Source of the DNA: Candidatus Sulfobium sp.
GTDB lineage: Bacteria > Nitrospirota > Thermodesulfovibrionia > Thermodesulfovibrionales > UBA6898
DNA length: 29,337 nucleotides
Direction: 5' to 3'
Assembly: GCA_037380845.1 (NCBI GenBank)
Contig: JARRRI010000024.1
Location: 35,607-64,943 of the forward strand
The translations under genes and the position numbers were made by a program. The notes under the pieces were generated by a model. That model saw nothing but the letters and a program-made list of their open reading frames with translations, ran no database searches and had not been told where the DNA came from. Below, piece after piece: positions 1 through 16,248 of the stretch (position 1 is its first letter; every line of letters starts with the position of its first letter).

Positions 1-261
1 CCATCGATCAGGGATATACTTCGGGAAAACGTCAATACAATAATGATCGATTCGTCCGGGGAGGAAAAGCTGGCTGATCAGGGGCTGACAGGGAGCGAGC
101 TTGCCAGGAAATACAGGGTCCGGGGTATTCCCACCCTTATCTTTCTGGGCCCGAAGAGGAAGGAACTGCTGAGGATTCCCGGACTGCTGACGAGGGAGGA
201 CTTCAGGGACGTGCTCTGCAATCAGGTTAAAGGCATAAACCGCAGACTGTGCGCCAGGTAG
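1..261 (+). CDS. soxW: Thioredoxin-fold protein, SoxW-like (5'-partial)
   Basis: Frame is open from base 1 to TAG 259-261. 'ELARKYRVRGIPTLIFL..ELLRIPG' is the C-terminal cis-Pro region of the thioredoxin/SoxW fold. It lies directly upstream of soxXYZAB. The CxxC is outside the window. Confidence 0.7.
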   Translation, partial: PSIRDILRENVNTIMIDSSGEEKLADQGLTGSELARKYRVRGIPTLIFLGPKRKELLRIPGLLTREDFRDVLCNQVKGINRRLCAR

Positions 262-327
262 CCGCAGATGCGGTGCAGGCTTCGCCTGTGTTTATTCAGA
301 TAAATGAAGAAAAGAAAGGAGGAAACA

Positions 328-693
328 GTGAAGACCATCAAGAATTTTGCGGCGTTGGGTTTGACCCTCGTGCTTCTTGCCTTGCCGGCTGCCGCATTGG
401 CAGGCGGCAGCTTCGAAAGCGGAAAGAAGTGCGTCAACACCAGGAGCCTGGGCAACTGCGCGGCATGTCATGTGGTGCCGGGCATGGAGTTCCCGGGAGA
501 TGTCGGGCCGGACCTTGTCAAGGCGATGCAGCATTACTCCGAGAAGGACCGGGACGTGGTCTGGCAATGGGTGTGGGACGCAAGGAAATTCGACCCGGAT
601 ACCATTATGCCGCCTTTCGGACCCAACAAGATACTCACGAAGGAGCAGGTCGATGACGTCGTCGACTATCTTTACAGCTTAAAGAAGAAATAA
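328..693 (+). CDS. soxX: SoxX monoheme cytochrome c
   Basis: GTG 328 follows SD AAGGAGG, so it is preferred over ATG 304. Sec signal peptide ending AALA; GNCAACH heme motif; 'GDVGPDL' and 'TIMPPFG' (axial Met) are typical of SoxX. Confidence 0.93.
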   Translation: MKTIKNFAALGLTLVLLALPAAALAGGSFESGKKCVNTRSLGNCAACHVVPGMEFPGDVGPDLVKAMQHYSEKDRDVVWQWVWDARKFDPDTIMPPFGPNKILTKEQVDDVVDYLYSLKKK

Positions 694-711
694 ACCAAGG
701 AGGTAAAAACC

Positions 712-1206
712 ATGGAGCGGAAGGATAAGGATCTGGTTCTCTCCAGGAGGGCTTTCCTGAAGACTGGCGGCGCAACCTGCGCTGTTTTCCTGTTGGCGGG
801 CAGTTTGCCGTCGCTGGTGAAGCCGGCCTTCGGCGCGCCGAAGAAAGAGAGCATCAAGGATGTGCTGAAAAAACAGTTCGGGGACAAGCCCATGAGCATG
901 TCCCATGTGGACATCAAGGCCCCTATCATCGCAGAAAACGGCGCCGTCGTCCCCATAAGGGTCGTCTCCGACCTGCCGATGAGGGATGACGATTACGTGA
1001 AAAAGATATATATATATGCCGAGGGCAACCTTCAGCCGTACGTCGCCGGCATCAATCTCACCCCGGCCAACGGCAAGGCGGATTTTTCCCTGAGGATAAA
1101 AATGAGAAAGACCGCCAACGTCAGGGCGGTGCTTGAGACTAGCAAAGGCAAGCTCTACGAGGCTTCCAGGTCCGTAAAGGTGACGATCGGCGGCTGTGGC
1201 GGCTGA
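712..1206 (+). CDS. soxY: SoxY sulfur carrier
   Basis: Tat signal SRRAFLK; 'APIIAENGAVVP'; C-terminal swinging arm VKVTIGGCGG. Confidence 0.97.
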   Translation: MERKDKDLVLSRRAFLKTGGATCAVFLLAGSLPSLVKPAFGAPKKESIKDVLKKQFGDKPMSMSHVDIKAPIIAENGAVVPIRVVSDLPMRDDDYVKKIYIYAEGNLQPYVAGINLTPANGKADFSLRIKMRKTANVRAVLETSKGKLYEASRSVKVTIGGCGG

Positions 1207-1257
1207 TCGGTCTTTCCTTTGAAATACCTTGACTGACAATTCCAGGAGGAAAATGAT

Positions 1258-1590
1258 ATGGCAAAGATAGGAAGGATCAAGATAAGGGTACCGCATTCCA
1301 TAACAAAGGGAGAGGTTATCCCGGTACAGGTGCTGGTCACCCATCCCATGGAGACCGGGCAGCGGAAGGACAAGAAAACCAAGGAACTCATCCCGGCATA
1401 TTACATCAATGGCGTCGATGTTTATTACGGCGACAGCCTGATAACACACTGCGACTGGACTATCGCCGTCAGCGCCAACCCGTTCATGACTTTCTATGTG
1501 AAGGCGGAGAAGGCGGCCCCGCTTAAGATCGTCTATAAGGACATCAAGGGAGGGGTTTACGAAAAGACGGTACAGATTAGCCCGCAGTAA
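1258..1590 (+). CDS. soxZ: SoxZ
   Basis: 'HPMETGQRKD..ELIPAYYI' and 'AVSANP' motifs; no signal peptide, consistent with co-export with SoxY. Confidence 0.96.
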   Translation: MAKIGRIKIRVPHSITKGEVIPVQVLVTHPMETGQRKDKKTKELIPAYYINGVDVYYGDSLITHCDWTIAVSANPFMTFYVKAEKAAPLKIVYKDIKGGVYEKTVQISPQ

Positions 1591-1624
1591 AAGGAACCTA
1601 TAAAGACCAGGAGGTAACGGGCAA

Positions 1625-2467
1625 ATGCATAAACTAATTACACGAATCCTGATATTGCTTTCAGTTTCATTCGGGATGCTCAGTATAATCGGAATACAGT
1701 ACTCCTTTGCCGCCGACGGATCCACGCCTGTGATAAAAGAGTACAAGCAGAGCGTCTCTGCAGAGGAGTACGAGAAAAGATACAATGCCGTTTACGGCAA
1801 ATCCACCGAGCAGATGGCCGAGGAGGGGAATCCCGCCGACTTTCTGCTGGAGGACGGCCGGGACCTTTACAACAAGGTCGAGGGCAGCGCCGGCAAATCC
1901 TGCGCCGACTGCCACGGCAAAAACGGCGAGAAGTTGAAGGGTGTAGCGGCCACTTATCCGAAGTACGACCCCGCAATAAAGGGTATAAACACAGTGGCCC
2001 TGCAGATTAACAGGTGCCGCGAGGACAACATGGGCGCCGAGCCGTTGAAATACGAGTCCGACGACCAGCTGTCACTGACACTGTACGTCAAGTCTCTCTC
2101 AAACGGCGACCCAATCAACGTCAGAATAGACGGGCCCGCCCGCCCGTTCTATGAAGCGGGCGAGGCTTACTACTATAAAAGGTTCGGACAGTTCAACTTC
2201 AGCTGCGCACTTTGTCATGTCAAGTACGCCGGCCACATGATGAGGGCCAACCTTCTTTCCAACAACAGACACCACGCCGACCATTGGCCCTCATACAGGC
2301 TGAAGTGGGGTGCTACAGGCTCTATCCAGAGGAGATTCCGGGGCTGCAACAAGAACGTCAGACAGAAGCCGGAGCCTTATCAGAGCGAGACGTACCGCAA
2401 CCTGGAGCTGTACCTGACTTATCAGGCCAACGGGCTGCCGATAAACGTCCCGGGCTTCAAGATGTAG
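1625..2467 (+). CDS. soxA: SoxA diheme cytochrome c (L-cysteine S-thiosulfotransferase subunit)
   Basis: Signal peptide; CADCH (1901-1915) and CALCH (2204-2218); 'INRCR' Cys ligand; 'WPSYRLKW' and 'RRFRGC' active-site Cys. Confidence 0.96.
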   Translation: MHKLITRILILLSVSFGMLSIIGIQYSFAADGSTPVIKEYKQSVSAEEYEKRYNAVYGKSTEQMAEEGNPADFLLEDGRDLYNKVEGSAGKSCADCHGKNGEKLKGVAATYPKYDPAIKGINTVALQINRCREDNMGAEPLKYESDDQLSLTLYVKSLSNGDPINVRIDGPARPFYEAGEAYYYKRFGQFNFSCALCHVKYAGHMMRANLLSNNRHHADHWPSYRLKWGATGSIQRRFRGCNKNVRQKPEPYQSETYRNLELYLTYQANGLPINVPGFKM

Positions 2468-2496
2468 GCGGGATAAACTTGATTTGAGGAGGTAAG

Positions 2497-4158
2497 ATGA
2501 GTATTACGAGGCGTAAATTCGTACAGATGATGGGTCTCGCGGCCGGCACCGCCGCAGTCTCTCCGTCTGCACTGGCCAAGAGTCTGAAGCCGGAGAAGCT
2601 CGTCAAATTTCAGGCGATGGGCAACATCACGCTGCTCCATACCACCGACACCCACGCCCAGCTTGTCCCCATATATTACCGCGAACCCGATACCAACATC
2701 GGGGTGGGAGAAGACAAGGGCGAGCCGCCTCATCTGACGGGCAGACACTTTCTGGAATACTACGGCTACAAGCCCGGAACCGTGGAGGCGTATGCCTACT
2801 CGAGCGTCGACTATGCAAGGCTGGCCGAGGAATACGGCAAGATGGGCGGGTTCGCATATATCGCTACGCTTATGAACCAGATTAAGGCGGAGAGGCCCGG
2901 CAAGACGCTGCATATAGACGGGGGCGATACCATCCAGGGTTCTGCCACCAGTCTCTGGACCAGGGGCGAAGACATGGTGAAGGCCATGAACAAGATGGGC
3001 TGCGATGTCATGACAGGCCACTGGGAGTTCACGTACGGACAGGATCGGCTTATGGAGCTGATAAAGAAGATGGATTTCGCGTTCGTTGCCCAGAACGTCA
3101 ACGATGCAACATGGGGCGACCCCATCTTCAAGCCCTATGTCATCAAGCAGGTCAACGGCCTTGCCGTGGCGGTTATCGGCCAGGCGTTCCCGTACACTCC
3201 CATAGCGAACCCGAGGAGGTTCATACCCGACTGGTCCTTCGGAATCAAGGACGAGCACATGCAGAAGGTCGTCAACGAAGTGAGGGCGAAGAAGGTCGAC
3301 CTTGTCGTCGTCATCTCCCACAATGGGATGGACGTGGACAAGAAGATGGCCAGGAGGGTTAAGGGGATAGATGTAATCATGGGCGGCCACACCCATGACG
3401 GGGTTCCTCAGCCCTTTGTGGTGAACAAGACACTTGTAATCAACTCCGGCTGCTACGGAAAATTTCTCTCCAGGCTCGACCTGAAGGTGAAGGGAAGAAA
3501 GATAGAGGACTATTCTTACAGGCTCATTCCGGTCATGTCCAGCATGATAAAGCCGGACGCCGAGATGGCCGGGCTGGTCGAGGAAATCCGCGCCCCTTAC
3601 AAGGACAAGCTCAACGAGGTCATCGGCCACACAGAGACCATCCTTTACAGGAGGGGTAATCTGGACGGCACCTTCGACGACCTGATATGCGACGCCCTCG
3701 TCGACCACTACGATGCTGACTTCGCTCTCTCTCCGGGCTTCAGGTGGGGAAGGACGGTGCTGCAGGGCCCCATCACGGCAGAAGACGTTTACTCGCAGAC
3801 AGCACTCACATATCCCAATACCTATAAGGCCGCCATGAAGGGCAGCAGGATAAAGGAGGTCCTCGAAGACATAGCGGACAACCTGTTTAACCCCGACCCC
3901 TACAGGCAGCAGGGAGGGGATATGGTAAGGACTAGGGGCCTCGATTTCACCATCAAAGTCAACGGAACTATGGGCAACAGGATAAGGGACCTCAAGGTCC
4001 GGGGCAAGGCCATGGAGCCGAACAAGGATTATACCATGTCCGGATGGGCCTCCATGGCGGAGCAGCCCGGGCCGCCTGTCTTTGACATAGTCATCGATTA
4101 TATCAGAAAGAAAAAGAACATCAATGTGTTTAATGACAGACCCAGGATGGTAACCTGA
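2497..4158 (+). CDS. soxB: SoxB thiosulfohydrolase
   Basis: Tat signal TRRKFVQ; metallophosphoesterase motifs DTHAQL, DGGDT, GHWEF, SHNG, GGHTHD; SoxB-typical 'REPDTNIGVG', 'SPGFRWG' and 'NPDPYRQQGGDMVR'. Confidence 0.97.
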   Translation: MSITRRKFVQMMGLAAGTAAVSPSALAKSLKPEKLVKFQAMGNITLLHTTDTHAQLVPIYYREPDTNIGVGEDKGEPPHLTGRHFLEYYGYKPGTVEAYAYSSVDYARLAEEYGKMGGFAYIATLMNQIKAERPGKTLHIDGGDTIQGSATSLWTRGEDMVKAMNKMGCDVMTGHWEFTYGQDRLMELIKKMDFAFVAQNVNDATWGDPIFKPYVIKQVNGLAVAVIGQAFPYTPIANPRRFIPDWSFGIKDEHMQKVVNEVRAKKVDLVVVISHNGMDVDKKMARRVKGIDVIMGGHTHDGVPQPFVVNKTLVINSGCYGKFLSRLDLKVKGRKIEDYSYRLIPVMSSMIKPDAEMAGLVEEIRAPYKDKLNEVIGHTETILYRRGNLDGTFDDLICDALVDHYDADFALSPGFRWGRTVLQGPITAEDVYSQTALTYPNTYKAAMKGSRIKEVLEDIADNLFNPDPYRQQGGDMVRTRGLDFTIKVNGTMGNRIRDLKVRGKAMEPNKDYTMSGWASMAEQPGPPVFDIVIDYIRKKKNINVFNDRPRMVT

Positions 4159-4172
4159 GAGCGCGGGATTCA

Positions 4173-4211
4173 GGGGCGCTCCGGACAGTTTCTTCCCCGC
4201 CGGAGCGCCTT
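4173..4211 (+). terminator. GC-rich stem-loop after soxB (terminator or RNA-stabilising hairpin)
   Basis: GGCGCTCCGG (4175-4184) pairs perfectly with CCGGAGCGCC (4200-4209); the U-tract is weak. Confidence 0.55.
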
Positions 4212-4216
4212 CCCGT

Positions 4217-4222
4217 TATAAT
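4217..4222 (+). promoter_or_regulatory. Sigma-70 -10 box (TATAAT) for the regulatory operon, probably leaderless
   Basis: Perfect TATAAT ends 6 nt before ATG 4229; there is no SD; the -35 match is poor. Confidence 0.5.
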
Positions 4223-4228
4223 TCAAGA

Positions 4229-5818
4229 ATGAAAAAACGTTTCAGTATTATTTTTTTCGCAGCTTTTTTCCTTCCCTTCCTTCTTTTATTGTCCTTCTGT
4301 CCTCCCGTCGCGGCCAAAAAACACAAACTCACCCTGATGCTTATACCGCTCCAGTCGCCTTCAGTCATGTACGGCAACTTCCTGCCCTTCAAACGATATC
4401 TGGAGGAGCAACTGGGCGAGCCGGTGGATTTGAAGGTGGCAAACAAGAGAAGCGACGTCATAGGGAGCCTTCAGAGGGGCGAAGCCGATATGGCCTTCAT
4501 GTGCCCCACGCTATACTGCAGCGCCTCCAGGCTCATACCGCTAGAGCCCCTGGCGAAGCTGCGCGTGAACGGGAGTGCCGAATACCGGAGCGTACTGCTG
4601 GTGCGGAAGGATTCCGATATCAAAAAAACGGCGGACCTTGCAGACAGGACCTTCGTGTACGGAAGGTATTACTGCCCCGGTTCCGGGCTGCTGCCGGAGT
4701 CGCTCCTGCAGAAGGTCGGGATCGATGACGACGATTTCATGGAAACGGTAAAGCTCGGCTCGGACGAAAGCGCGATCCTTGCGGTCATGGCCAGGCTGTT
4801 CGACGCGACCGGGGTTTCCGAGATGGCGGCAAAGCCTTACCTGGACAAGGGTATGAGGATCCTGAGCTATTCATATCCTATCCCCCAGTATCTTTTTGCC
4901 GCCAGGGCCGGCCTCGGCAAGCCCCTCCTGAAAAAAATCCGGGAGGCGATGGTCTCCGTAAACTCCCACGACCCCAAAAAAGTGCTGGGCAGCATAGAGC
5001 CCGGGGCCGACGGACTGGTCGAGGCGGGGGACGGCGACTACGATATTGTCAGGATCCTGATGAAAAGCGTTCTCGGCGATAAGGACATGATGAAGCCGGT
5101 CAAAGGAGCCGTCAGGTTTGTGGTGGAACCGGTCTCGTTCGAACCCGAGATGTTCAAGGAGCTGCATTCGCTGGTGCTTTACCTCTCCAGGGCTTCAGGC
5201 AGGCGGTTTCAGCTTGTGATCCCCGAAAGTATCAAGGACTTCATTCGTATGATGAAGGTCGGGGAGGGGGATTTCTTCCTCCAGAATCGCGATCTTTATT
5301 CCGGGGCCGTGACGAAGGGCTATCTCTCCGGGCTGGCATCCCTCGCCCGGACCGGACGGTCTGAAAACAGGGGAGTGATTATCGTAAGCGCAAAGAGTCC
5401 GATAAAAGCCCTGCGTGAACTTGACGGCAAAAAAACCGGCGTTGTATCATTATATTCAGATAGCGGTTTTCTCGCCCAGAAGGAACTGCTAAGGAAAGAG
5501 AAGGTGCCTGCTGGTTCCGTCCATTTCGTGGTGCTCAGGTCCTGCGAGCGTGTGATCATGCAAGTTTACCATGGCGTGGTCAGTGCCGGTTTTGTGAGTT
5601 ACTCCGCACTTCAGTCCATGGGAAAGGACATAGACCTGGGCCGTTTCAGGGTCCTGGCGACGTCGCCGCCGCTGCCCGACTGGGTCATCGCCGCAAGGAA
5701 AGGCCTGGATGCGGAATTCGCTAAGAGAATAGAAAAGGCCCTCATCCGGTACTCAGTAAAAGGCCCGGACGTCCCCGGCGATATCAGGATGAGAGAGTTG
5801 AAGTCAACCGGCGGATGA
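4229..5818 (+). CDS. Tandem (two-domain) PhnD/phosphonate-binding-fold periplasmic substrate-binding protein, not linked to an ABC transporter here
   Basis: Signal peptide. Two repeats of the PhnD pattern: 'F.PFKRYLEEQLG.PV.L', 'YRSVLLVRKDSDIK..ADL', 'PIPQYLF'; then 'L..LVLYLSRASG', 'GVIIVSAKSPIK.L.EL.GK', 'SDSGFL', 'SPPLPDW'. Confidence 0.85.
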   Translation: MKKRFSIIFFAAFFLPFLLLLSFCPPVAAKKHKLTLMLIPLQSPSVMYGNFLPFKRYLEEQLGEPVDLKVANKRSDVIGSLQRGEADMAFMCPTLYCSASRLIPLEPLAKLRVNGSAEYRSVLLVRKDSDIKKTADLADRTFVYGRYYCPGSGLLPESLLQKVGIDDDDFMETVKLGSDESAILAVMARLFDATGVSEMAAKPYLDKGMRILSYSYPIPQYLFAARAGLGKPLLKKIREAMVSVNSHDPKKVLGSIEPGADGLVEAGDGDYDIVRILMKSVLGDKDMMKPVKGAVRFVVEPVSFEPEMFKELHSLVLYLSRASGRRFQLVIPESIKDFIRMMKVGEGDFFLQNRDLYSGAVTKGYLSGLASLARTGRSENRGVIIVSAKSPIKALRELDGKKTGVVSLYSDSGFLAQKELLRKEKVPAGSVHFVVLRSCERVIMQVYHGVVSAGFVSYSALQSMGKDIDLGRFRVLATSPPLPDWVIAARKGLDAEFAKRIEKALIRYSVKGPDVPGDIRMRELKSTGG

Positions 5819-5877
5819 AAGCATGAGCCATCCGTGAAAGGGCTTTTGGCAGAATTGATGACGCCCCTGCCCGTAGC

Positions 5878-7368
5878 ATGAGGATTTTTAGAGAACTCAA
5901 CGAGCGCACCAGCATCAAGGTCAAGGGCATCCTTTACATGATGCTGATGCTGATGGTCATCTATTTTTCGGTAAGCCTCATAGTACTCTCTACGGCCCAT
6001 AAAAACCTGGACCTCCATCTCAGACAGTTCCATACAAGTATTGCCCAGAAGCTGGCCGTTTCCGCTTCCGACTCAATAATAGCAAAGGATTACGGCTCCC
6101 TGATGGAGCAGGTAAGACAACTCAGGCAGTCGTCGCAGGTACAGGGCGTCAAGGCGGTGGACATGCGCGGGATCGTGGTCCTGTCCGATGACCTGAGCGA
6201 GATAGGAAAGCGCGAGCCGCAGATGCTGCAGCGCCTGCGCGACGTGACGATAGCCGGAAATGATGCCCGGGACGTGTCAGATACGGAGGTCTTTATGCCG
6301 GTCGATGTGGAAGGGGACGTGCTGGGTGCGCTGCAGGTGAAATTCAATGACTCCGGGAAGACCGGACCCAGCAGGGAATTCAGGAAAACGGAGATCCAGC
6401 TCGCTTATCTTTCGCTGCTGATCTTTGCGGCGGGCATATGGGGCTCTTTCATGGTGTCTTCGATCCTTACCAAGCCGGTAACGAAACTGGTGAGGGAAAT
6501 AGAGTCGTTTGAAAAGGAGATAACCCTCGGCGGCGGCAATCTGTACGACCCGGTGGTCAGGGACGAGTCGGTCCAGCTTAAACAGGCCTTCCGGCACATG
6601 ATAGAGCACCTGAAAGAATATCTTCAGGAATTCAGGAGGATGTCCGAGGAGAGGGAGAAGATTTCCTGTATGGCCATGGTGGGACAGATGTCAGCGCAGA
6701 TAGCGCACGAGATGCGGAACAGCCTCTATGCGATCAGGGGAGCGGCCTCCGAAATAAAACGGATAAACCACCAGTCTGAGATAGAGGAGTATGCGGATAT
6801 AATAAAGGACGAGTCGCTCGAGATGACCATAATGGCCGACGAGTTCCTCCGGTTTTCGAGGATGCCTTCTCCTTCGCCCAGGCCTTGCCGGATAACGGAT
6901 ATAGTGGACAGGGTGGTGGAACTGCTCGACACTGACCTGGATGAGGCCGGCGTCAGGGTCGTAAGGCTGGAACCTCACGAAGTGCCGCAGATAATCGGCG
7001 ATCCGGCTCTGTTAAAGCAGGCATTTATGAACCTTTTCATAAATGCTATACAGGCCATGGAAGAAGGCGGTAAGATCACGGTGGATTATAAGGTCTCCGG
7101 CGAGCGGGTGGAGGTGCACGTAATGGACACCGGGCCGGGTATTCCGGAGGAGGTGGCCTCCAGGATGTTCCAGCCGTTCTTTACCACCAAGACCGAAGGG
7201 AGCGGGCTGGGTCTTGCGACGGTCTATAAGATAATCTTCACCCATCACGGTGAGATCAAGCTGCTCGGGTCCGACGGGGGAGCGCATTTCCAGATAATGC
7301 TGCCTCTGGCCGGGAGCGAATACGGACGCATCTACCAGGCTGTCAAATTGGGGCAAGGCAGGGCGTAA
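5878..7368 (+). CDS. Membrane sensor histidine kinase (NtrB/AtoS-like)
   Basis: Two TM helices flank a periplasmic domain. H-box AHEMRNSL, N-box NLFINAIQA, DTGPGI, FQPFFTTK, GSGLGL. The start is uncertain (see findings). Confidence 0.93.
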   Translation: MRIFRELNERTSIKVKGILYMMLMLMVIYFSVSLIVLSTAHKNLDLHLRQFHTSIAQKLAVSASDSIIAKDYGSLMEQVRQLRQSSQVQGVKAVDMRGIVVLSDDLSEIGKREPQMLQRLRDVTIAGNDARDVSDTEVFMPVDVEGDVLGALQVKFNDSGKTGPSREFRKTEIQLAYLSLLIFAAGIWGSFMVSSILTKPVTKLVREIESFEKEITLGGGNLYDPVVRDESVQLKQAFRHMIEHLKEYLQEFRRMSEEREKISCMAMVGQMSAQIAHEMRNSLYAIRGAASEIKRINHQSEIEEYADIIKDESLEMTIMADEFLRFSRMPSPSPRPCRITDIVDRVVELLDTDLDEAGVRVVRLEPHEVPQIIGDPALLKQAFMNLFINAIQAMEEGGKITVDYKVSGERVEVHVMDTGPGIPEEVASRMFQPFFTTKTEGSGLGLATVYKIIFTHHGEIKLLGSDGGAHFQIMLPLAGSEYGRIYQAVKLGQGRA

Positions 7369-7369
7369 A

Positions 7370-8710
7370 GTGGAAAAGATCCTGATTGTAGATGACGAGA
7401 GGAATATCCTCAGGTTTCTGAGCAGGCTCCTGAAGCAGGAGGGCTTCCAGGCGGATACGGCTAAAAACTTCGAAGAGGCGGTCTCAAAAATTGTTGACCA
7501 ACCCTTTGATCTCATCCTGTCCGACATGAGGCTGCCCGGCAGGTCCGGTCTGGACCTGCTGAAATGGGTGAAGGAAAAGGACCCGGATCTGCCTGTTGTG
7601 ATAATAACGGCATACGGGAGCATAGAAAACGCTGTGGAAGCGATGAAGGCAGGGGCCGTCAACTACCTCACCAAGCCTGTCGAGTCCAATGACCTGTTCG
7701 CGGTCATAAGACACAGCCTTCTGCATAAGAAGGGCAGAAAAGGGGAAGACATCGCAGTCGGCCGGATAGAGGAGCAGTACGGGATAATAGGCCGCAGCAA
7801 ACCCATCCAGGAAATACTGACCACAGTCAGGATCGTTTGCGACAGCCGCTCCAACGTTCTTATCACGGGCGAATCCGGCACGGGTAAGGAATTGGTTGCC
7901 CGGGCGATGCACGACGCCTCCCAGAGGAGGCCGTTTCCTTTTGTCGCCATAAACTGCGGGGCGATACCCGGGGAACTTATGGAGAATGAGCTTTTCGGCC
8001 ACGAAGCGGGTTCCTATACGGGCGCAGCGTCAAGGGAAACCGGCAAGGTAGAACTGGCCAATAAGGGGACCCTGTTCCTCGACGAGATAGGAGAGATGCC
8101 CCTGCCCATGCAGATAAAACTTCTCCGCTTCATACAGGAGAGGGAGTTCTACCGCATCGGGGGGACGGTACCGGTGAAGGCCGACTGCCGCATCATCGCC
8201 TCTACGAACAGGAACCTGGAAGAGGAGATCGAAGAAGGCAGGTTCAGGGAAGACCTCTTTTACCGCCTGAACGTTATCCCTGTCCAGATGCCGAGGCTGA
8301 GTGAACGAAAGGAGGACATACCACTCCTGGTGGAACATTTTCTGGGCAAATATGCCGAACAGAACCAGAAGTTCGTGAAGGGCATCGATCAGAGGGCAAT
8401 GGAAGCCCTGGTGGCCTACGACTGGCCGGGCAATATCCGGCAGCTTGAAAATGTTATCGAAAGGGCCATCGTTCTTACCAGGTACGACACCATAGTAAGG
8501 GCGGACCTGCCCTCCAGGATATTGAATATCGGTGCCGAAGGCGGCGAAAAGATCGGGGGTTTTGACGGCCTGAAACTGCCTGAACTGGAGCGGGCCGCCA
8601 TTCTGAACGCTCTGGAGGGTGAGAGCTGGAACCAGACGAAGGCTTCCAGGCGCCTGGGCATAACGAGAAGGCAGCTCCGCACGAAGATGGCGAAATACGA
8701 TCTCCTCTAG
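7370..8710 (+). CDS. Sigma-54-dependent response regulator (REC-AAA+-HTH, NtrC family)
   Basis: GTG start; receiver 'IVDDE', 'SDMRLPG'; Walker A GESGTGKE; GAFTGA variant GSYTGA; Walker B LFLDEIGE; RFREDLFYRLNV; Fis-type HTH 'NQTKASRRLGI'. Confidence 0.96.
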   Translation: MEKILIVDDERNILRFLSRLLKQEGFQADTAKNFEEAVSKIVDQPFDLILSDMRLPGRSGLDLLKWVKEKDPDLPVVIITAYGSIENAVEAMKAGAVNYLTKPVESNDLFAVIRHSLLHKKGRKGEDIAVGRIEEQYGIIGRSKPIQEILTTVRIVCDSRSNVLITGESGTGKELVARAMHDASQRRPFPFVAINCGAIPGELMENELFGHEAGSYTGAASRETGKVELANKGTLFLDEIGEMPLPMQIKLLRFIQEREFYRIGGTVPVKADCRIIASTNRNLEEEIEEGRFREDLFYRLNVIPVQMPRLSERKEDIPLLVEHFLGKYAEQNQKFVKGIDQRAMEALVAYDWPGNIRQLENVIERAIVLTRYDTIVRADLPSRILNIGAEGGEKIGGFDGLKLPELERAAILNALEGESWNQTKASRRLGITRRQLRTKMAKYDLL

Positions 8711-8756
8711 TCTCGCAGGAAATAATCGCTTTCAAAAAATTGAAAAAATAACAATG

Positions 8757-8936
8757 CACCGCAGAGACGCGGAGAGCACAGAGATTCATCCGCCTCCGGC
8801 GGATAAAATTAATTTTGTTTTCCGGTGAGAGGCCGGAAGAACAAGAAAGGCCCACCTTTTGCAGCTCATGTATTTCTGCTTTCTCGGCAGAAATGCATGA
8901 TATAAAACTCTCTGCGTCCTCTGCATTTCTGCAGTG
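8757..8936. repeat. About 180-bp multi-hairpin element with imperfect terminal inverted repeats (MITE/REP-like)
   Basis: The left end CACCGCAGAGACGCGGAGAGCACAGAGA matches the reverse complement of the right end (CACTGCAGAAATGCAGAGGACGCAGAGA). Internal stems at 8788-8804, 8815-8844, 8846-8859 and 8866-8900. Confidence 0.65.
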
Positions 8937-8971
8937 AATATTTCTGGCTGCCCGGCTGTCCTGTTTCTCTT

Positions 8972-9020
8972 TGTTCAGAAAAGGACAGCGGCCGTCCGCA
9001 GGTTTGTGCATTTCTGAACA
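8972..9020. promoter_or_regulatory. Two candidate upstream activator sites (TGT-N10-ACA) for a sigma-54 activator
   Basis: TGTTCAGAAAAGGACA (8972-8987) and TGTGCATTTCTGAACA (9005-9020). They are 14/16 identical in inverted orientation, their centres are 33 bp apart, and they lie upstream of a -24/-12 promoter. Confidence 0.6.
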
Positions 9021-9058
9021 GTTTCTCTCTCCAAACCGCTCATTTTTGGAGCGTATCC

Positions 9059-9075
9059 CAGGCATGGAAAATGCT
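9059..9075 (+). promoter_or_regulatory. Sigma-54 (-24/-12) promoter of the yeeE-DUF302-tusA-porin operon
   Basis: CAGGCATGGAAAATGCT: GG at 9061-9062, exactly 10 nt spacer, GC at 9073-9074; about 70 nt upstream of ATG 9146. Confidence 0.75.
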
Positions 9076-9145
9076 TTGCTTAGGAATACAAGAACGGGTT
9101 GCTCACCAGAGAAAGTCGTTACAACACACTGCTCAGGAGGAATGA

Positions 9146-10372
9146 ATGTCGAAAGGTAGAAAAGTTTTCGGTATAGCTTTGATGATAGGTGCAGTCCTCT
9201 GGATCGTCTATTACATACTCAAGATAAAGGGCTATACGACCATAGACGCCTCGTCCCTGTCGGACGACCAGATAGCGGCCATCAAGACTTCCATCCGCTC
9301 CGCAGTAATAATCTCCGGCCTGCTGATAGGCGGGATCATGGGGGCAGTAGTGCAAAGGTCCAAGTTCTGCATAGCCGCAGCCTGCCACAACATAGTGACC
9401 ACCAGAGACATGACCCAGACGAGGGCATATGCCATGGCGCTCTTTGTCGCCATTCCCGCAACCCAGGTGCTTTATAGTCACGGGATTGTGGACATCGGAC
9501 GGAGCATATACATTAATTCGCCCTTTACCTGGCTGAGTTACGTTGCCGGGGGGTTTATCTTCGGCGTCGGAATAGTGTATGCCGGAGGCTGCGCAAGCAG
9601 GATACTCGTACGCGCAGGTGAAGGCAATCTGGGAGGACTGGTGAGCGTGCTGGCATTCATTTTTGCATCGGGGGCGACCCTGTGGGGAATCACGGCCAGG
9701 CTCCGGGTGGACTACTTCAACAAATTGACCCTGAACATGAGTAACCAGTATCTGCCTGACGTGATCGGCCACGTGCCGGCCTGGGCAATAATACTGGTCA
9801 TAGAGGCTGTGCTGCTCGGTTTCATGCTGAAGGCGCCAAAGGAGTCCGAGTGGCGGAGCTGGAGATGGCCACTGGCGGGCGCCGCCATAGGGCTGGTTGT
9901 GGTATTGGCCTGGTGGGTCAACGGCCTGGCATTCAAGGCCATTCCCAATGTGGACGCGTTCTCCTTCGCCGGGCCTGACGACGCGACCCTGCTGCAGGTC
10001 TGGAGACCCAAAAGCATGACCTTCGCACTGGCCGATGCCCAGGCGTTCAGGTACATAATCCTCTGGACCGGGGAGACAATAAACTTCGCGGTGGCAACTG
10101 TACTCGGAGTGGTGGCGGGCTCCTTCATTTCTGCCGTTATCAGCGGAACCTTCCAGTGGGTCGCCCCCCCTCTTCAGCAGTTCAAGTACAACCTGGCCGG
10201 CGGACTGCTCATGGGCTTTGGCGCGGTCCTTGCCATGGGCTGCAACATCGGCCAGGGGTTGAGCGGCATTTCAACACTTTCACTGGGGAGCTTCCTCACC
10301 ATGTCTTTTATCCTGTTCGGCGCCATTGCCGGGGCCAAGTTCATGACCTGGCGAATAATGAGGGAGGCCTGA
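9146..10372 (+). CDS. YeeE/YedE (TsuA/SoxT-type) thiosulfate/sulfur transporter
   Basis: Polytopic membrane protein with the three family Cys motifs: 'RSKFC', 'AGGCASR' and 'AMGCNIGQGLSG'; SD AGGAGG. Confidence 0.92.
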   Translation: MSKGRKVFGIALMIGAVLWIVYYILKIKGYTTIDASSLSDDQIAAIKTSIRSAVIISGLLIGGIMGAVVQRSKFCIAAACHNIVTTRDMTQTRAYAMALFVAIPATQVLYSHGIVDIGRSIYINSPFTWLSYVAGGFIFGVGIVYAGGCASRILVRAGEGNLGGLVSVLAFIFASGATLWGITARLRVDYFNKLTLNMSNQYLPDVIGHVPAWAIILVIEAVLLGFMLKAPKESEWRSWRWPLAGAAIGLVVVLAWWVNGLAFKAIPNVDAFSFAGPDDATLLQVWRPKSMTFALADAQAFRYIILWTGETINFAVATVLGVVAGSFISAVISGTFQWVAPPLQQFKYNLAGGLLMGFGAVLAMGCNIGQGLSGISTLSLGSFLTMSFILFGAIAGAKFMTWRIMREA

Positions 10373-10374
10373 GT

Positions 10375-10890
10375 ATGAATATGAGCAGAAAAAAACTGTT
10401 TGCGCTTTGTCTGCTGCTGGCCGTGGCGGCATTTTCAGCGGCCCTCCAGGCGCAGACGTCTTCCGGGGACGAAAGGCAGGACCCTGTAGTTATTCGTTCA
10501 GTGAAGGGAAACTTCGACACGGTATGGGAGGACCTGAAAATCGTGCTCGCCGGTCGCGGCCTGGTCGTCTCCGGCGTTTCCCACGTGCAGAAGATGCTCG
10601 ACCGGACAGGCAAGGCCCTGGGCAGGACCAAAAAAATATTCGCCAGGGCGAAGGTGCTCGAATTCTGCAGCGCTGTCGTTTCAAGGGACATGATGGAAGA
10701 GAACCCACATTTTATCGCCTTCTGTCCGTACCAGATTGCTGTCTATGCAATTGCAGGTCACGAAGGGAAGGTCTATCTTTCCTATCGGCGCCTTGTCTGG
10801 AATGACGGAAGCGGAAAGGCCGCCCGCGACGAGGTTGAAAAACTGCTGGACGGCATTGTCGGCGATGTCGTAGAGATGAACAAGGAATAA
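10375..10890 (+). CDS. DUF302-family exported protein
   Basis: ATG 10375 follows the yeeE stop with SD GGAGG; signal peptide; 'GLVV..VSHV..ML', 'LEFCS' and 'FCPYQIAVY' fit DUF302. Confidence 0.8.
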   Translation: MNMSRKKLFALCLLLAVAAFSAALQAQTSSGDERQDPVVIRSVKGNFDTVWEDLKIVLAGRGLVVSGVSHVQKMLDRTGKALGRTKKIFARAKVLEFCSAVVSRDMMEENPHFIAFCPYQIAVYAIAGHEGKVYLSYRRLVWNDGSGKAARDEVEKLLDGIVGDVVEMNKE

Positions 10891-10948
10891 AAAGAAGTTT
10901 ATCGTAAGGCTTTTGACCATATCTTATTTTGAAAGGAGGCCATGATTA

Positions 10949-11185
10949 ATGGCGGAATTGGCGGTTGACGTGAAGATTGATTGCACCGGCCTGAACTGTC
11001 CCATGCCGGTGGTGAAGACAAAGAAAGCGCTGAGTCAGATAGCTGCCGGGCAGTTGCTGGAGGTAACAGCAACCGACCCCGGTTCAAAGTCGGATATACC
11101 GGCCCTTGTACGGAACATGGGTTCGGAGATCGTCGAAACGAGGGACGAGCAGGGTTCCGTTTTCTTTCTTATAAGAAAAAAATAG
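10949..11185 (+). CDS. tusA: TusA/YeeD-family sulfur carrier
   Basis: 'IDCTGLNCPMPVVKTKKAL' with the CPxP motif; 'ATDPGS..DIP'; 78 aa. Confidence 0.92.
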   Translation: MAELAVDVKIDCTGLNCPMPVVKTKKALSQIAAGQLLEVTATDPGSKSDIPALVRNMGSEIVETRDEQGSVFFLIRKK

Positions 11186-11307
11186 AAGAGAGAGACGAAT
11201 GAAAATGGGAGGGCGAGGCGCCCGCAAAAGCATGAGAAGGAGGTGAAAGCCATTTAAACTGACGAAATAGTGAGGGAATTCAAAATGAAAATCTGGGGAG
11301 GTAAAAC

Positions 11308-12459
11308 ATGAGACGTATTTTTTCTTTGCTTGTTTTTTTGATTATTGTAGTGGGATTGACGGCACAGGCGTATGCTATCGAGGTATACAATCAGAATGAC
11401 ACGAAGGTCTCGCTGGGGTTCAAGACCAAGATATGGTTTCAGTCCATCAAGGACGCGGCCCCGGACGGCGACTCGCGGTCCAATGATTTTTCTTTGAGGC
11501 AGGGCCGTATTTATCTCAAGGGTCAGTTTACGAAAATGATAACCTTCGGGTCGAACTTCGACTGGAACAACCTCGGTTCGGTCGACGGCAAAGACACTTC
11601 GTCGACCTCTACAAAACTGACGGACGCATGGGTGGGATTTAACTTCATGCCGCAGTTGCATTTCATGACGGGAAAATACCGTATCGCTTTTTCAAGATAC
11701 TCCCTCACCCCCTCATACACAGCCTTTCTTTTCCCTCACCATCCCTTTTCCGCCAGCGGTAAACTGCTGACCAAAACGGGTGATTACAGGCAGCTCGGCG
11801 TAACTGCCTGGGGATTTATCGGGAAAAGGTTCCGCTATAACGTCGGCGTGGCCAGCGGCGTTCCGAAGGCTCTGAACGGTGAGAACAATTCGTCCGACTC
11901 CCTGGAGTATGTCGCCAGGGCTGAATACTCGATCCTGGGGCATGACAAGGGTTACCTGCACGGAAACGAATGGCTCGGCAAGAGGGGTAAACTCCTCACC
12001 GTTGGCGCGGGCTATCTGTCCAAAAGATATGACATTAACCCGGACGCTGCTGTCACGGATAACGTGACTTATAGTGCGTGGACCGCTGACGGTTACTTCG
12101 AGTATCCCCTCGGAGGTGGTTCAATCGCCGCCGAGGCTGCGTATTACGACTATGACAGAGACACCCCGGACAACCCGAGGATAAAGTCGTGGTATGCCCA
12201 GGCGGGATATGTGCTTCCGGGCAGAATCGGCCCCGGCCAGCTTGAGCCCGCTTTCCGTTACGATTCGTATAAGCCTGACGGAGACGAGACAGGCACCACG
12301 TCATGGTCGGTCGGATTCAACTACTACATTAAGGGAAACAATGCCAAAGTGCAGGTAGAATACATGAACGTCAACAATGACTCAAACGCGAACCTTTTCA
12401 GCGGCGTAAAAGGGAAAGATACGGATGCCCTGACTGTACAGCTGATCCTGATCATCTGA
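11308..12459 (+). CDS. Outer-membrane porin, OprO/OprP (anion-selective)/ExtI-like
   Basis: Signal peptide ending AYA; amphipathic beta strands 'DFSLRQGRIYLKG', 'LTDAWV', 'WYAQAGYVLP', 'LEPAFRYD', 'VGFNYYIKGNNAKVQVEY'. Confidence 0.82.
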   Translation: MRRIFSLLVFLIIVVGLTAQAYAIEVYNQNDTKVSLGFKTKIWFQSIKDAAPDGDSRSNDFSLRQGRIYLKGQFTKMITFGSNFDWNNLGSVDGKDTSSTSTKLTDAWVGFNFMPQLHFMTGKYRIAFSRYSLTPSYTAFLFPHHPFSASGKLLTKTGDYRQLGVTAWGFIGKRFRYNVGVASGVPKALNGENNSSDSLEYVARAEYSILGHDKGYLHGNEWLGKRGKLLTVGAGYLSKRYDINPDAAVTDNVTYSAWTADGYFEYPLGGGSIAAEAAYYDYDRDTPDNPRIKSWYAQAGYVLPGRIGPGQLEPAFRYDSYKPDGDETGTTSWSVGFNYYIKGNNAKVQVEYMNVNNDSNANLFSGVKGKDTDALTVQLILII

Positions 12460-12639
12460 AGACCCGGGTATCAAAGCAGCTTTTGTTTCTCCTTTTCTCA
12501 CTCTAACCCTCCTTCGGGCGGAGGGCTTTTCATAATAGCTTCTCTGTTTTATCTCCCTGAACAGGCCCTCTTTCTGGAGCTGCCTTTTGAGAGATTTCAG
12601 CGCCTTCTCCAGATCATTTCCATAGACTCTTATATCCAA
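12382..12639 (-). CDS. rpsU: 30S ribosomal protein S21 with apparently replaced C-terminus (possible pseudogene)
   Basis: TTG start after SD AAGGAG. MDIRVYGNDLEKALKSLKRQLQKEGLFREIKQRSYYEKPS is a clear S21. After codon 40 (12520) it no longer looks like S21, and it runs 78 nt into the porin gene. Confidence 0.85.
   Translation of the reverse strand: MDIRVYGNDLEKALKSLKRQLQKEGLFREIKQRSYYEKPSARRRVRVRKGETKAALIPGSSDDQDQLYSQGIRIFPFYAAEKVRV
12507..12530 (+). terminator. Intrinsic terminator candidate after the porin
   Basis: CCCTCC-ttcgggc-GGAGGG followed by CTTTT and preceded by a pyrimidine tract. The 3' arm overlaps rpsU codons 37-40 on the other strand. Confidence 0.55.
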
Positions 12640-15303: not shown

Positions 15304-16248
15304 TCAACTGACTTCGGTAACAGCCGTCTGCCGCAGGTTTGTTATATCGCGCGAGGGCGAATTGCCGAACATACGGCTGTACTCTCGGCTGAATTGGGAG
15401 GGACTTTCATAGCCGACCTGGAATGCTGCCGCCGCTGCATCCTCATTCTCTGAGAGCATCAAGCGCCGAGCTTCATTTAAACGCAACCACTTTTGATATT
15501 GCAGCGGGCTCATGGCTGTCAGCGCCCTGAAATGGTGGTGGAAAGTCGATGCGCTCATATTTACCTGCGCCGCCAGGTCATCGATGCGCAGCGGCTGGGC
15601 GTAATGGCCCTTCAGCCAGTCGATCGCCTGGGCAATCCTGTTGCCCTGGCTGCCTGCAGTGGCCATCTGGCGAAGGCGGGCGCCCTGTTCTCCCACAAGC
15701 ATGCGATAGAAAATCTCCCTTTTTATTATGGGTGCGAGTATGGGGATGTCCCCCGGATTGTCAAGGAGGTCAACAAGCCGCTTAAAGGCATCGAGCAGCT
15801 CAGGCGTGAGCCTGCCTGTGGCCATAGCGTGTCCCTGCTGTTGTGTCTGGGGCGAAGGAAGGGCGCTGTCAACCATCAACTCCGCCAGTGTACGCAGATC
15901 CAGGTCCAGTACAAGCCCGAGGTACGGTTTTTCCGGGCTCGCCTCAAGTATCTGAACGACCGTTGGCAGGTTAATGGGAGTAACCAGATAGTGCCGGGCA
16001 TCATATACATATTCATTGCTCCCGAGTACCGCACGCTTCGCTCCCTGAACCGCCACGCAGATACAGGGAGGGTACATGCCGCTATGTGGCCGGGTTGTCC
16101 CGGTTTTCATATAGAGTGTAAGGCCGGGCACGGCAGTCTCGTTGCTGCCGTCCTTGTCCGCCAGACGGGCAATGTTCACACGAAGCCCGGAAAGCACGGC
16201 GGACATATTTCCTCCCTCATTGGTCTCTTTCGCAAGCATACCTTCCAT
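15304..16248 (-). CDS. AraC-family regulator (YqhC-like, AraC_N + HTH)
   Basis: 'ETAVPGL', 'QGAKR', 'MSASTFHHHFR..TAMSPLQYQK..RL.EAR', 'VGYESPSQFSREYSRMFG'; divergent from a YqhD-like gene. ATG 16206 is an alternative start. Confidence 0.93.
   Translation of the reverse strand: MEGMLAKETNEGGNMSAVLSGLRVNIARLADKDGSNETAVPGLTLYMKTGTTRPHSGMYPPCICVAVQGAKRAVLGSNEYVYDARHYLVTPINLPTVVQILEASPEKPYLGLVLDLDLRTLAELMVDSALPSPQTQQQGHAMATGRLTPELLDAFKRLVDLLDNPGDIPILAPIIKREIFYRMLVGEQGARLRQMATAGSQGNRIAQAIDWLKGHYAQPLRIDDLAAQVNMSASTFHHHFRALTAMSPLQYQKWLRLNEARRLMLSENEDAAAAAFQVGYESPSQFSREYSRMFGNSPSRDITNLRQTAVTEVS

Follow-up and report, generated by a model that had tools for sequence, protein, structure and literature searches.

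A likely sulfur-triggered three-component sensor of the AioXSR design beside a soxCD-less sox operon in Candidatus Sulfobium

The three regulatory genes that directly follow soxB in a genome of Candidatus Sulfobium sp. (Nitrospirota) raise the question of which signal they read and which genes they control. They lie in a stretch of 29,337 nucleotides of contig JARRRI010000024.1 (hereafter the window, meaning the whole stretch analyzed) and encode a secreted tandem PhnD-fold binding protein, a histidine kinase and a sigma-54 response regulator (hereafter the triad). Our analysis suggests that these proteins are likely to form a three-component sensor of the AioXSR design with a TspR-type sigma-54 output that is triggered by sulfur. 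A sequence-only reading of the same DNA had proposed a sulfur-oxyanion sensor driving the yeeE promoter; the sulfur-linked sensor gained support from gene conservation, motif co-occurrence, domain swaps among relatives and a weak complex model, whereas the "oxyanion" part did not. An open reading frame (ORF) check of the window recovered all ORFs of the locus at the coordinates given below and confirmed the gene order of that reading, from soxB through the tandem PhnD-fold protein, the kinase and the sigma-54 activator to yeeE, DUF302, TusA and a porin-like gene.

1..261, + strand: 3' part of a periplasmic thioredoxin-like gene that heads the sox operon (PF13098)
304..4158, + strand: soxX-soxY-soxZ-soxA-soxB, soxCD absent; predicted target operon 1 (NCBIfam profiles)
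4175..4228, + strand: 10-bp hairpin 3' of soxB and TATAAT box (4217-4222), the probable triad promoter (sequence)
4229..5818, + strand: secreted tandem PhnD-fold binding protein, with C92/C149 in domain 1 and an eroded anion pocket in domain 2 (two PF12974 stretches, model, alignments)
5878..7368, + strand: histidine kinase, with two membrane helices flanking an sCache_3-like periplasmic domain at about residues 36-176 (HisKA, HATPase_c)
7370..8710, + strand: sigma-54 response regulator with REC, sigma-54 AAA and HTH_8 domains, its HTH family-specific (Pfam/NCBIfam, tree)
8734..8945, no strand: dispersed palindromic repeat element outside the system (similar stretches on 8 other contigs)
8972..8987 and 9005..9020, + strand: predicted paired 16-bp TGT-N10-ACA activator sites, spacing 17 bases (motif matrix)
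9059..9076, + strand: -24/-12 sigma-54 promoter, GG at 9061-62 and GC at 9073-74, with a weaker overlapping candidate from 9064 (conservation, matrix)
9146..10372, + strand: long-form YeeE/TsuA/SoxT-type sulfur transporter that heads target operon 2 (PF04143, Sulf_transp)
10375..10890, + strand: secreted DUF302 protein with conserved C98 and C117 (Pfam, orthologue alignment)
10949..11185, + strand: TusA-family sulfur carrier (PF01206)
11308..12459, + strand: ExtI-like/Porin_O_P outer-membrane protein, a genus-level add-on, probably co-transcribed (Pfam/NCBIfam)
12507..12525, + strand: terminator-like hairpin ending the yeeE operon and facing convergent rpsU (consensus match only)

The five sox genes scored above the NCBIfam cut-offs (TIGR04485/04488/04490/04484/04486 for soxX, soxY, soxZ, soxA and soxB), and profile searches also found rpoN and dsrA in the genome. 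Nothing in the genome scored above the cut-offs for SoxC or for a PhnE-type permease, and because of the latter the PhnD-fold protein is an orphan, as had been read from the sequence. The DsrD family search gave no match in the genome and none in the controls either.

Orthologues were searched in 301 genomes of the phylum, and 40 of the best-scoring loci were fetched for comparison (G000 denotes the window genome; handles such as L001 and L035 denote loci). Binding protein, kinase and regulator were encoded consecutively as separate ORFs in 40/40 of these loci. Close relatives come from Nitrospirota, including Candidatus Sulfobium sp. at 80% identity, and the full-length tandem orthologues split into clade A (40-79% identity), found 3' of soxB, and clades B/C (27-35%). 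A scan of 251 genomes of the class placed the clade A gene directly 3' of soxB in 18/18 soxB-bearing genomes, and the sox-triad cassette probably moves as one block. The triad regulators formed a single clade with a support of 0.998 (quick FastTree, L054 left out as truncated). In 17 other clade A loci, two of them cut short by contig edges, we found DUF302 14 times, yeeE 12 times, tusA 8 times and the porin gene once, in a genome of the same genus. At one clade A locus yeeE is missing and is found elsewhere in that genome, behind the same paired site. The constant output is therefore sox together with DUF302/yeeE, with DUF302 as the most constant co-target, and the porin is a local addition, since its orthologue occurs in just 1/17 loci. 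The porin was accordingly not retained among the core components. A scan of a genome collection with a single-protein query returned two Pirellulales loci, both irrelevant.

The promoters of clade A carry two 16-bp TGT-N10-ACA sites, mostly 16-17 bases apart, and then a -24/-12 element; comparison with 7 clade A relatives showed it to be conserved at 38-40 bases 3' of the second site. To score sites, a matrix was derived from 14 promoters belonging to other genomes and run over the whole window genome. Its top match genome-wide was the pair 5' of yeeE (window position 8972, 37.6 bits), which bears out the paired sites first recognized there, along with a -24/-12 promoter, in the sequence-only reading; 0/2000 shuffles of the intergenic region reached this score (shuffle maximum 14.4). 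The second match (28.2 bits) was the sox promoter, where paired sites and a -24/-12 element lie 136-211 bases 5' of the window (G000:C24:35395 onward), and the third was a pair on another contig (C49:7414, 25.1 bits). The best scores in five shuffled genomes were 14-21 bits, below all three pairs. The training of the sigma-54 matrix held a near-identical site of a close relative, so that its score for 9059-9076 is not independent. In 9 held-out loci a pair was found 5' of the sox operon in 9/9 and 3' of the regulator in 7/9, and a site pair was absent from two genomes with a sox-yeeE-DUF302 cassette for which no triad was detected. Activator sites precede the sox operon in 16/17 other sox-linked loci, which makes sox a main output of the system; the porin-to-cytoplasm route that had been proposed from the sequence is not supported as the main one.

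The operon behind the C49 pair encodes a thioredoxin, a TolC-like protein and an HlyD adaptor, genes which lie directly 3' of DUF302 in L037, L038 and L196 and also occur in the cassettes of L223/L224. No inner-membrane pump was recognized beside the TolC-like/HlyD operon on C49, and the trio is possibly an outer-membrane route for sulfur export or import. The paired site at this locus (G000:C49:4628-9363, L074) stands between the operon and a divergent YeiH-type (PF03601) membrane gene.

As for the expression of the triad itself, the TATAAT box follows the hairpin and ends 6 bases 5' of the start codon of the binding-protein gene. Most clade A and B loci have a similar -10 box immediately 5' of the start codon, versus 63/1409 long ORFs genome-wide, and a leaderless sigma-70 promoter of the triad, separate from the sox operon, is probable from these sequences. 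Inverted repeats at 8866-8938 were considered as activator sites and rejected, as they lie inside the dispersed repeat (8734-8945). This repeat is inserted between the regulator gene and the target promoter, and the compared clade A relatives lack it in their promoters.

Natural domain swaps illustrate which parts of the triad belong together. At L064/L066 the binding protein and the sCache domain are kept (37-63% to their kin), the kinase core is foreign (30-37%), the regulator has another HTH and the activator site was not found. Conversely, L149, L128 and L078 keep the regulator, the site and YTD-type genes and have a multi-membrane sensor with no binding protein in the locus. Therefore, the binding protein tracks the sCache domain, and it also stays with the kinase where yeeE is elsewhere or absent. 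The swapped-in kinase (L149:6969-10084, L128, L078) has multiple membrane helices and no Pfam sensor family, and adjoins the YTD-type operon. The sensor domain of the triad kinase itself shows low conservation (48% in clade A and 40% in clades B/C) and lacks an invariant polar pocket. Its sCache_3_2 match in the window is weak (E 0.0063, below cut-off), as opposed to an above-cut-off match in a clade B orthologue (E 7e-17). Complex modelling of binding protein and kinase, a check proposed in the sequence-only reading, gave a score of 0.56 versus 0.00 for the best of three controls, with runs agreeing in at least 97% of contacts and a partner pLDDT of at least 76. Scores up to 0.60 are rated weak, as this range held 18/157 solved complexes and both passing mismatches (2 of 215), and the model thus weakly suggests that the binding protein docks on the sCache domain. 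A fold search of the full kinase model returned matches to the cytoplasmic core alone and nothing on the sensor domain, and protein-cluster atlas searches returned generic Cache/HAMP and PF12974 clusters. The kinases of clades B/C (L042-L063, alignment A3 columns 228-296) carry a cysteine-rich insert of about 50 aa in the HAMP region, absent in clade A, which is possibly metal-binding and a second, cytoplasmic input.

The binding protein as modelled by AlphaFold (pLDDT 88.8) matched PtxB, ArrX and AioX lobe for lobe, with fold-search Z scores of 29.2, 27.7 and 25.2, respectively. Its score against the PhnD equivalog TIGR03431 was 138 bits, versus a cut-off of 261; a role in phosphonate ABC transport was ruled out on this basis and by the lack of a PhnE above cut-off in the genome. 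Domain 2 gave a weak match to the N-terminal region of TtrS (E 9.7e-5). In clades B/C, residues N353, P354, Y355, R438, R457 and N484 of this domain (window numbering) are invariant (32/32 each), and they would together form a basic pocket fit for a dianion. Clade A has lost the two arginines (0/37), its remaining pocket positions are variable, and its domain 2 shows lower conservation than domain 1 (41% vs 61%); domain 2 is missing altogether in L040 and several homologues of 287-295 aa. Domain 1 of clade A has C92 and C149 in 37/37 tandem rows, at positions where clades B/C have D and S (32/32), and several clade A members have no cysteine besides this pair. Judging by these alignments, domain 1 would be the working pocket in the sox-linked clade A. 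In a same-genus relative (L195:10191-11740) the binding-protein gene is interrupted within domain 2, which fits erosion of that domain.

In the alignment C92 falls on the ligand cysteine of ArrX/AioX and C149 on the anion-binding Ser161, residues whose roles in the AioX pocket are described in PMC5908839. Because these two positions contact one and the same small ligand in AioX, C92 and C149 should face each other. They could form a structural disulfide, or they could be reactive and bridged by sulfur, and both options fit the sequences. An oxyanion sensor is thus doubtful for this copy, in which the basic pocket of clades B/C is lost and a cysteine pair occupies ligand-contact positions.

Triads of clades B/C extend the regulon beyond sox. 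Sulfur genes lie within about 10 kb in 21/32 of their loci, in the form of a tusA-DsrE-yeeE-tusA arrangement (YTD-type as described in PMC8780430), of tauE with a molybdopterin oxidoreductase, or of an opposite-strand sox operon. In 10 of the 11 genomes without a sulfur neighbor the paired pattern was searched, and exactly one match was found in 7/10; a reversed-pattern control matched in 0/10 genomes. These detached matches lie 5' of usp-tauE, tauE, a single PhnD gene (PhnD(-tauE)) or yeeE in 7/7 cases. Consequently, the idea that such triads reside away from sulfur genes, which would speak against a sulfur sensor, largely fails. The site at L067 is identical to the printed TspR site of Acidithiobacillus caldus, and this exact site was found in clade B/C relatives. 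A metagenome scan for the exact TspR site yielded at least 119 stretches; among the 79 loci analyzed, 4 were in a relevant context and 0 were sox loci. Nearly all assigned targets of the motif are sulfur-handling genes or sox-cassette genes, and single-domain PhnD proteins lie within the regulated tauE operons. The other triads would thus use this motif to reach YTD-type and tauE/thiosulfate-reductase-like operons, even distant ones.

The layout of the triad is already known from AioXSR, and its use for sulfur is new, which corrects the view that no characterized system is arranged in this way. AioXSR consists of a PF12974 protein, an sCache-like kinase and a sigma-54 regulator and, like ArxXSR and ArrXSR, is described as clustered beside metabolic genes with a separate PF12974 protein and an sCache-like kinase, the sigma-54 regulator applying to Aio and Arx (PMC5908839, PMC8050422). 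AioX and ArrX also have their ligand cysteine at the position of C92. Unlike AioXSR, the window encodes two fused PhnD domains and has sulfur rather than arsenic targets, and unlike AioX its binding protein has a second cysteine in place of Ser161 and an Asp in place of His192. The AioX pocket residues Y88, C106, Y131, S161, S163, H192 and D210 correspond to R74, C92, Y119, C149, G151, D179 and D192, so that 3/7 are kept. The neighbors are sox and yeeE, and no aio/arx/arr molybdoenzyme genes are adjacent. Membership of AioX proper was ruled out on these two grounds.

The output side resembles TspS/TspR of A. caldus, whose activator site is printed in PMC6335251. This is a sigma-54 two-component pair beside SoxCD-less soxXYZAB whose kinase has sCache_3_2, HisKA and HATPase_c domains, and we liken the systems through this description; the site is identical at L067 and matches the first window site at 11/16 positions. 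They differ in that TspS/TspR is presented as a two-component system, no binding protein appearing in the text consulted, and belongs to a different phylum. The name Acidithiobacillus was absent among the best 120 of 179 regulator-HTH matches, and a tblastn of plasmids, seeking the A. caldus TspS/TspR, gave no match. ThsS and TtrS, in turn, sense thiosulfate or tetrathionate with a PhnD-like domain (PMC5408782), to which the weak TtrS match of domain 2 corresponds. In those sensors the PhnD-like domain is fused to the kinase, whereas here the two are separate ORFs in the window and in 40/40 loci, and membership of ThsS proper was ruled out for this reason. ThsR and TtrR are not known to be sigma-54 activators.

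The cysteine pair has an analogy in SoxR and sHdrR, as SoxR is described in PMC11582611 as using two conserved cysteines bridged by sulfur as a switch. These are cytoplasmic DNA-binding repressors of another fold, and no homology with the binding protein is implied. SqrR is a further sulfane-sulfur sensor of this type. To our knowledge, the known cysteine-bridge sensors are cytoplasmic repressors, and the known periplasmic sensors are kinase domains. Our literature search found no description of the triad (subscription papers and bioRxiv supplements lay outside its coverage).

We propose the following course of events, in which we infer binding, phosphotransfer, the ligand and the direction of transport, whereas gene content, motif conservation with its genome-wide rank, co-occurrence and residue conservation are shown by the sequences. 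The triad would probably be made constitutively from its own sigma-70 promoter, and the periplasmic binding protein would react to a reduced sulfur compound, either thiosulfate or a sulfane-sulfur product of thiosulfate. The signal would be received at domain 1 and the binding protein would dock on the sCache domain of the kinase, which would phosphorylate the regulator. The regulator would then bind the paired TGT-N10-ACA sites and activate the sigma-54 promoters of three operons, namely trx-soxXYZAB, yeeE-DUF302-tusA-porin and the unlinked thioredoxin/TolC-like/HlyD-adaptor operon. Sox would strip the sulfone sulfur as sulfate, and the remaining sulfane sulfur would be imported by YeeE, taken over by TusA and fed into Dsr-type metabolism in the cytoplasm. 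Within this explanation, covalent sensing by C92/C149 and non-covalent binding of thiosulfate with a structural disulfide each account for about half of the probability. A more specific version, tentative and on the whole somewhat doubtful, holds that the clade A protein is a periplasmic sulfane-sulfur sensor that evolved from a bilobed B/C thiosulfate sensor, sensing having moved from the anion pocket of domain 2 to a reactive cysteine pair. Bridging or modification of C92/C149, opposed to one another in a PhnD-type cleft, would close the lobe and fire the kinase, the sulfur coming from polysulfide, thiosulfate/tetrathionate or persulfidated SoxY, and the family as a whole would switch Sox, YTD/DsrEFH-II and thiosulfate-reductase-like operons throughout the class Thermodesulfovibrionia.

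Several observations weigh against a sulfur-triggered three-component sensor. In clades B/C, 11/32 loci have no sulfur gene within about 10 kb and a scoring site pair is nearby in just 16/32, while 3/10 genomes with detached triads lack a paired match (one of the 3 carries a foreign regulator). The 18/18 co-occurrences with soxB are not independent events, the cassette being patchy across families (1/24 in its own family), and the single-protein query did not find the triad in three soxB genomes of the phylum. C92/C149 could be a plain periplasmic disulfide. Moreover, regulator and site operate without a binding protein in the locus at L149/L128/L078, which would suit an ordinary TspSR-type two-component system in which the sCache domain binds thiosulfate and the PhnD-fold protein is a modulator or passenger. 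The A. caldus TspS is reported to carry the same sCache_3_2 domain (PMC12194929) and is modelled as a direct thiosulfate sensor (PMC6335251). We nevertheless regard such a system as unlikely, as gains and losses of the binding protein coincide with those of the sCache domain, the invariant pocket residues are found in the binding protein and not in the poorly conserved sensor domain, and the complex model passes, albeit weakly.

A signal other than sulfur would be conceivable if the cysteine pair read periplasmic redox or a soft ligand such as arsenite, with the sulfur genes switched indirectly. Two thiols suit As(III) or disulfide redox chemistry, and C92 stands at the arsenite-binding position of AioX; against this, nearly all assigned motif targets are sulfur-handling or sox-cassette genes, no arsenic enzyme was recognized at the loci annotated and just 3/7 AioX pocket residues are kept, which makes this reading very improbable. 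Least probable of all is a role in transport or delivery, in which the PhnD-fold protein would pass sulfur on to YeeE or Sox and take no part in signaling. Although the PhnD fold is typical of transport binding proteins and single-domain versions occur within regulated tauE operons, the gene studied here sits in the triad operon and outside the regulated one, its product remains paired with the kinase even where yeeE lies elsewhere or is missing, and the genome has no PhnE permease above cut-off.

Regarding the output proteins, YeeE has about nine membrane helices and shares the invariant C75, C149 and C366 with E. coli TsuA, scoring below the TsuA equivalog cut-offs. It resembles SoxT1A and TsuA-TsuB (YeeE-YeeD) as a long YeeE with three conserved cysteines that lies close to a truncated Sox system, together with a TusA-like partner protein and a periplasmic thioredoxin (PMC11582611). 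Control differs: in H. denitrificans it is exerted by cytoplasmic ArsR-type repressors according to that paper, whereas here a periplasmic sensor and sigma-54 would be used and DUF302 is added. The same paper excludes thiosulfate as a substrate of SoxT1A. Because the Sox system is SoxCD-less here and SoxT1A is analogous, YeeE would probably import Sox-derived sulfur for TusA and Dsr-type enzymes, rather than thiosulfate as the sequence-only reading had assumed. DUF302 has C98 and C117 in 15/15 full-length orthologues (one further match is a fragment) and is a candidate periplasmic carrier. The porin scored 136.5 bits against NF040900 (ExtI), versus a cut-off of 150, and the window holds no ext cluster.

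According to PMC11582611, little is understood of how bacteria perceive reduced sulfur outside the cell. The triad family offers a separable soluble candidate sensor, two pocket types in one fold, and a defined operator with its targets, so that ligand and mechanism can be tested directly. It also gives the YTD cluster and the tauE/thiosulfate-reductase-like operons a regulator and a motif to search with; the part that these genes play in sulfur disproportionation is under debate (PMC13490349). The family marks dsrA-bearing Nitrospirota as turning on a truncated Sox pathway by signal. Further, it raises the question of whether A. caldus TspS has an overlooked binding partner, and the family is a possible source of new thiosulfate or polysulfide biosensors.

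The sox cassette itself varies among relatives. It starts just 3' of a tRNA-Ser gene at L001 (15194-15283), and in L041, L195 and L201 it likewise has tRNA genes at its flanks, which would fit integration. In L035, L036, L041, L197 and L200 the clade A sox operons lack soxX and soxA at the locus and keep soxYZB and a periplasmic DsrE-like gene. L038 (12542-17892) has a Tat-exported molybdopterin enzyme of 1147 aa, a 4Fe-4S subunit and a chaperone between soxA and soxB. In L050, L051, L044 and L226 a close sox-yeeE-DUF302 cassette is divergent to a clade B triad in place of a clade A one, the paired site being kept, so that the cassette was apparently handed over between sensor types. In the window genome, a 7-base N gap just 5' of the window (L001, about 15600-15607) covers the expected CxxC region of the thioredoxin. 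Finally, a 950-aa protein encoded in a chemotaxis-like cluster (L075:6364-9216, G000:C12) ends in a C-terminal PF12974 domain, a fusion that is common in the class.

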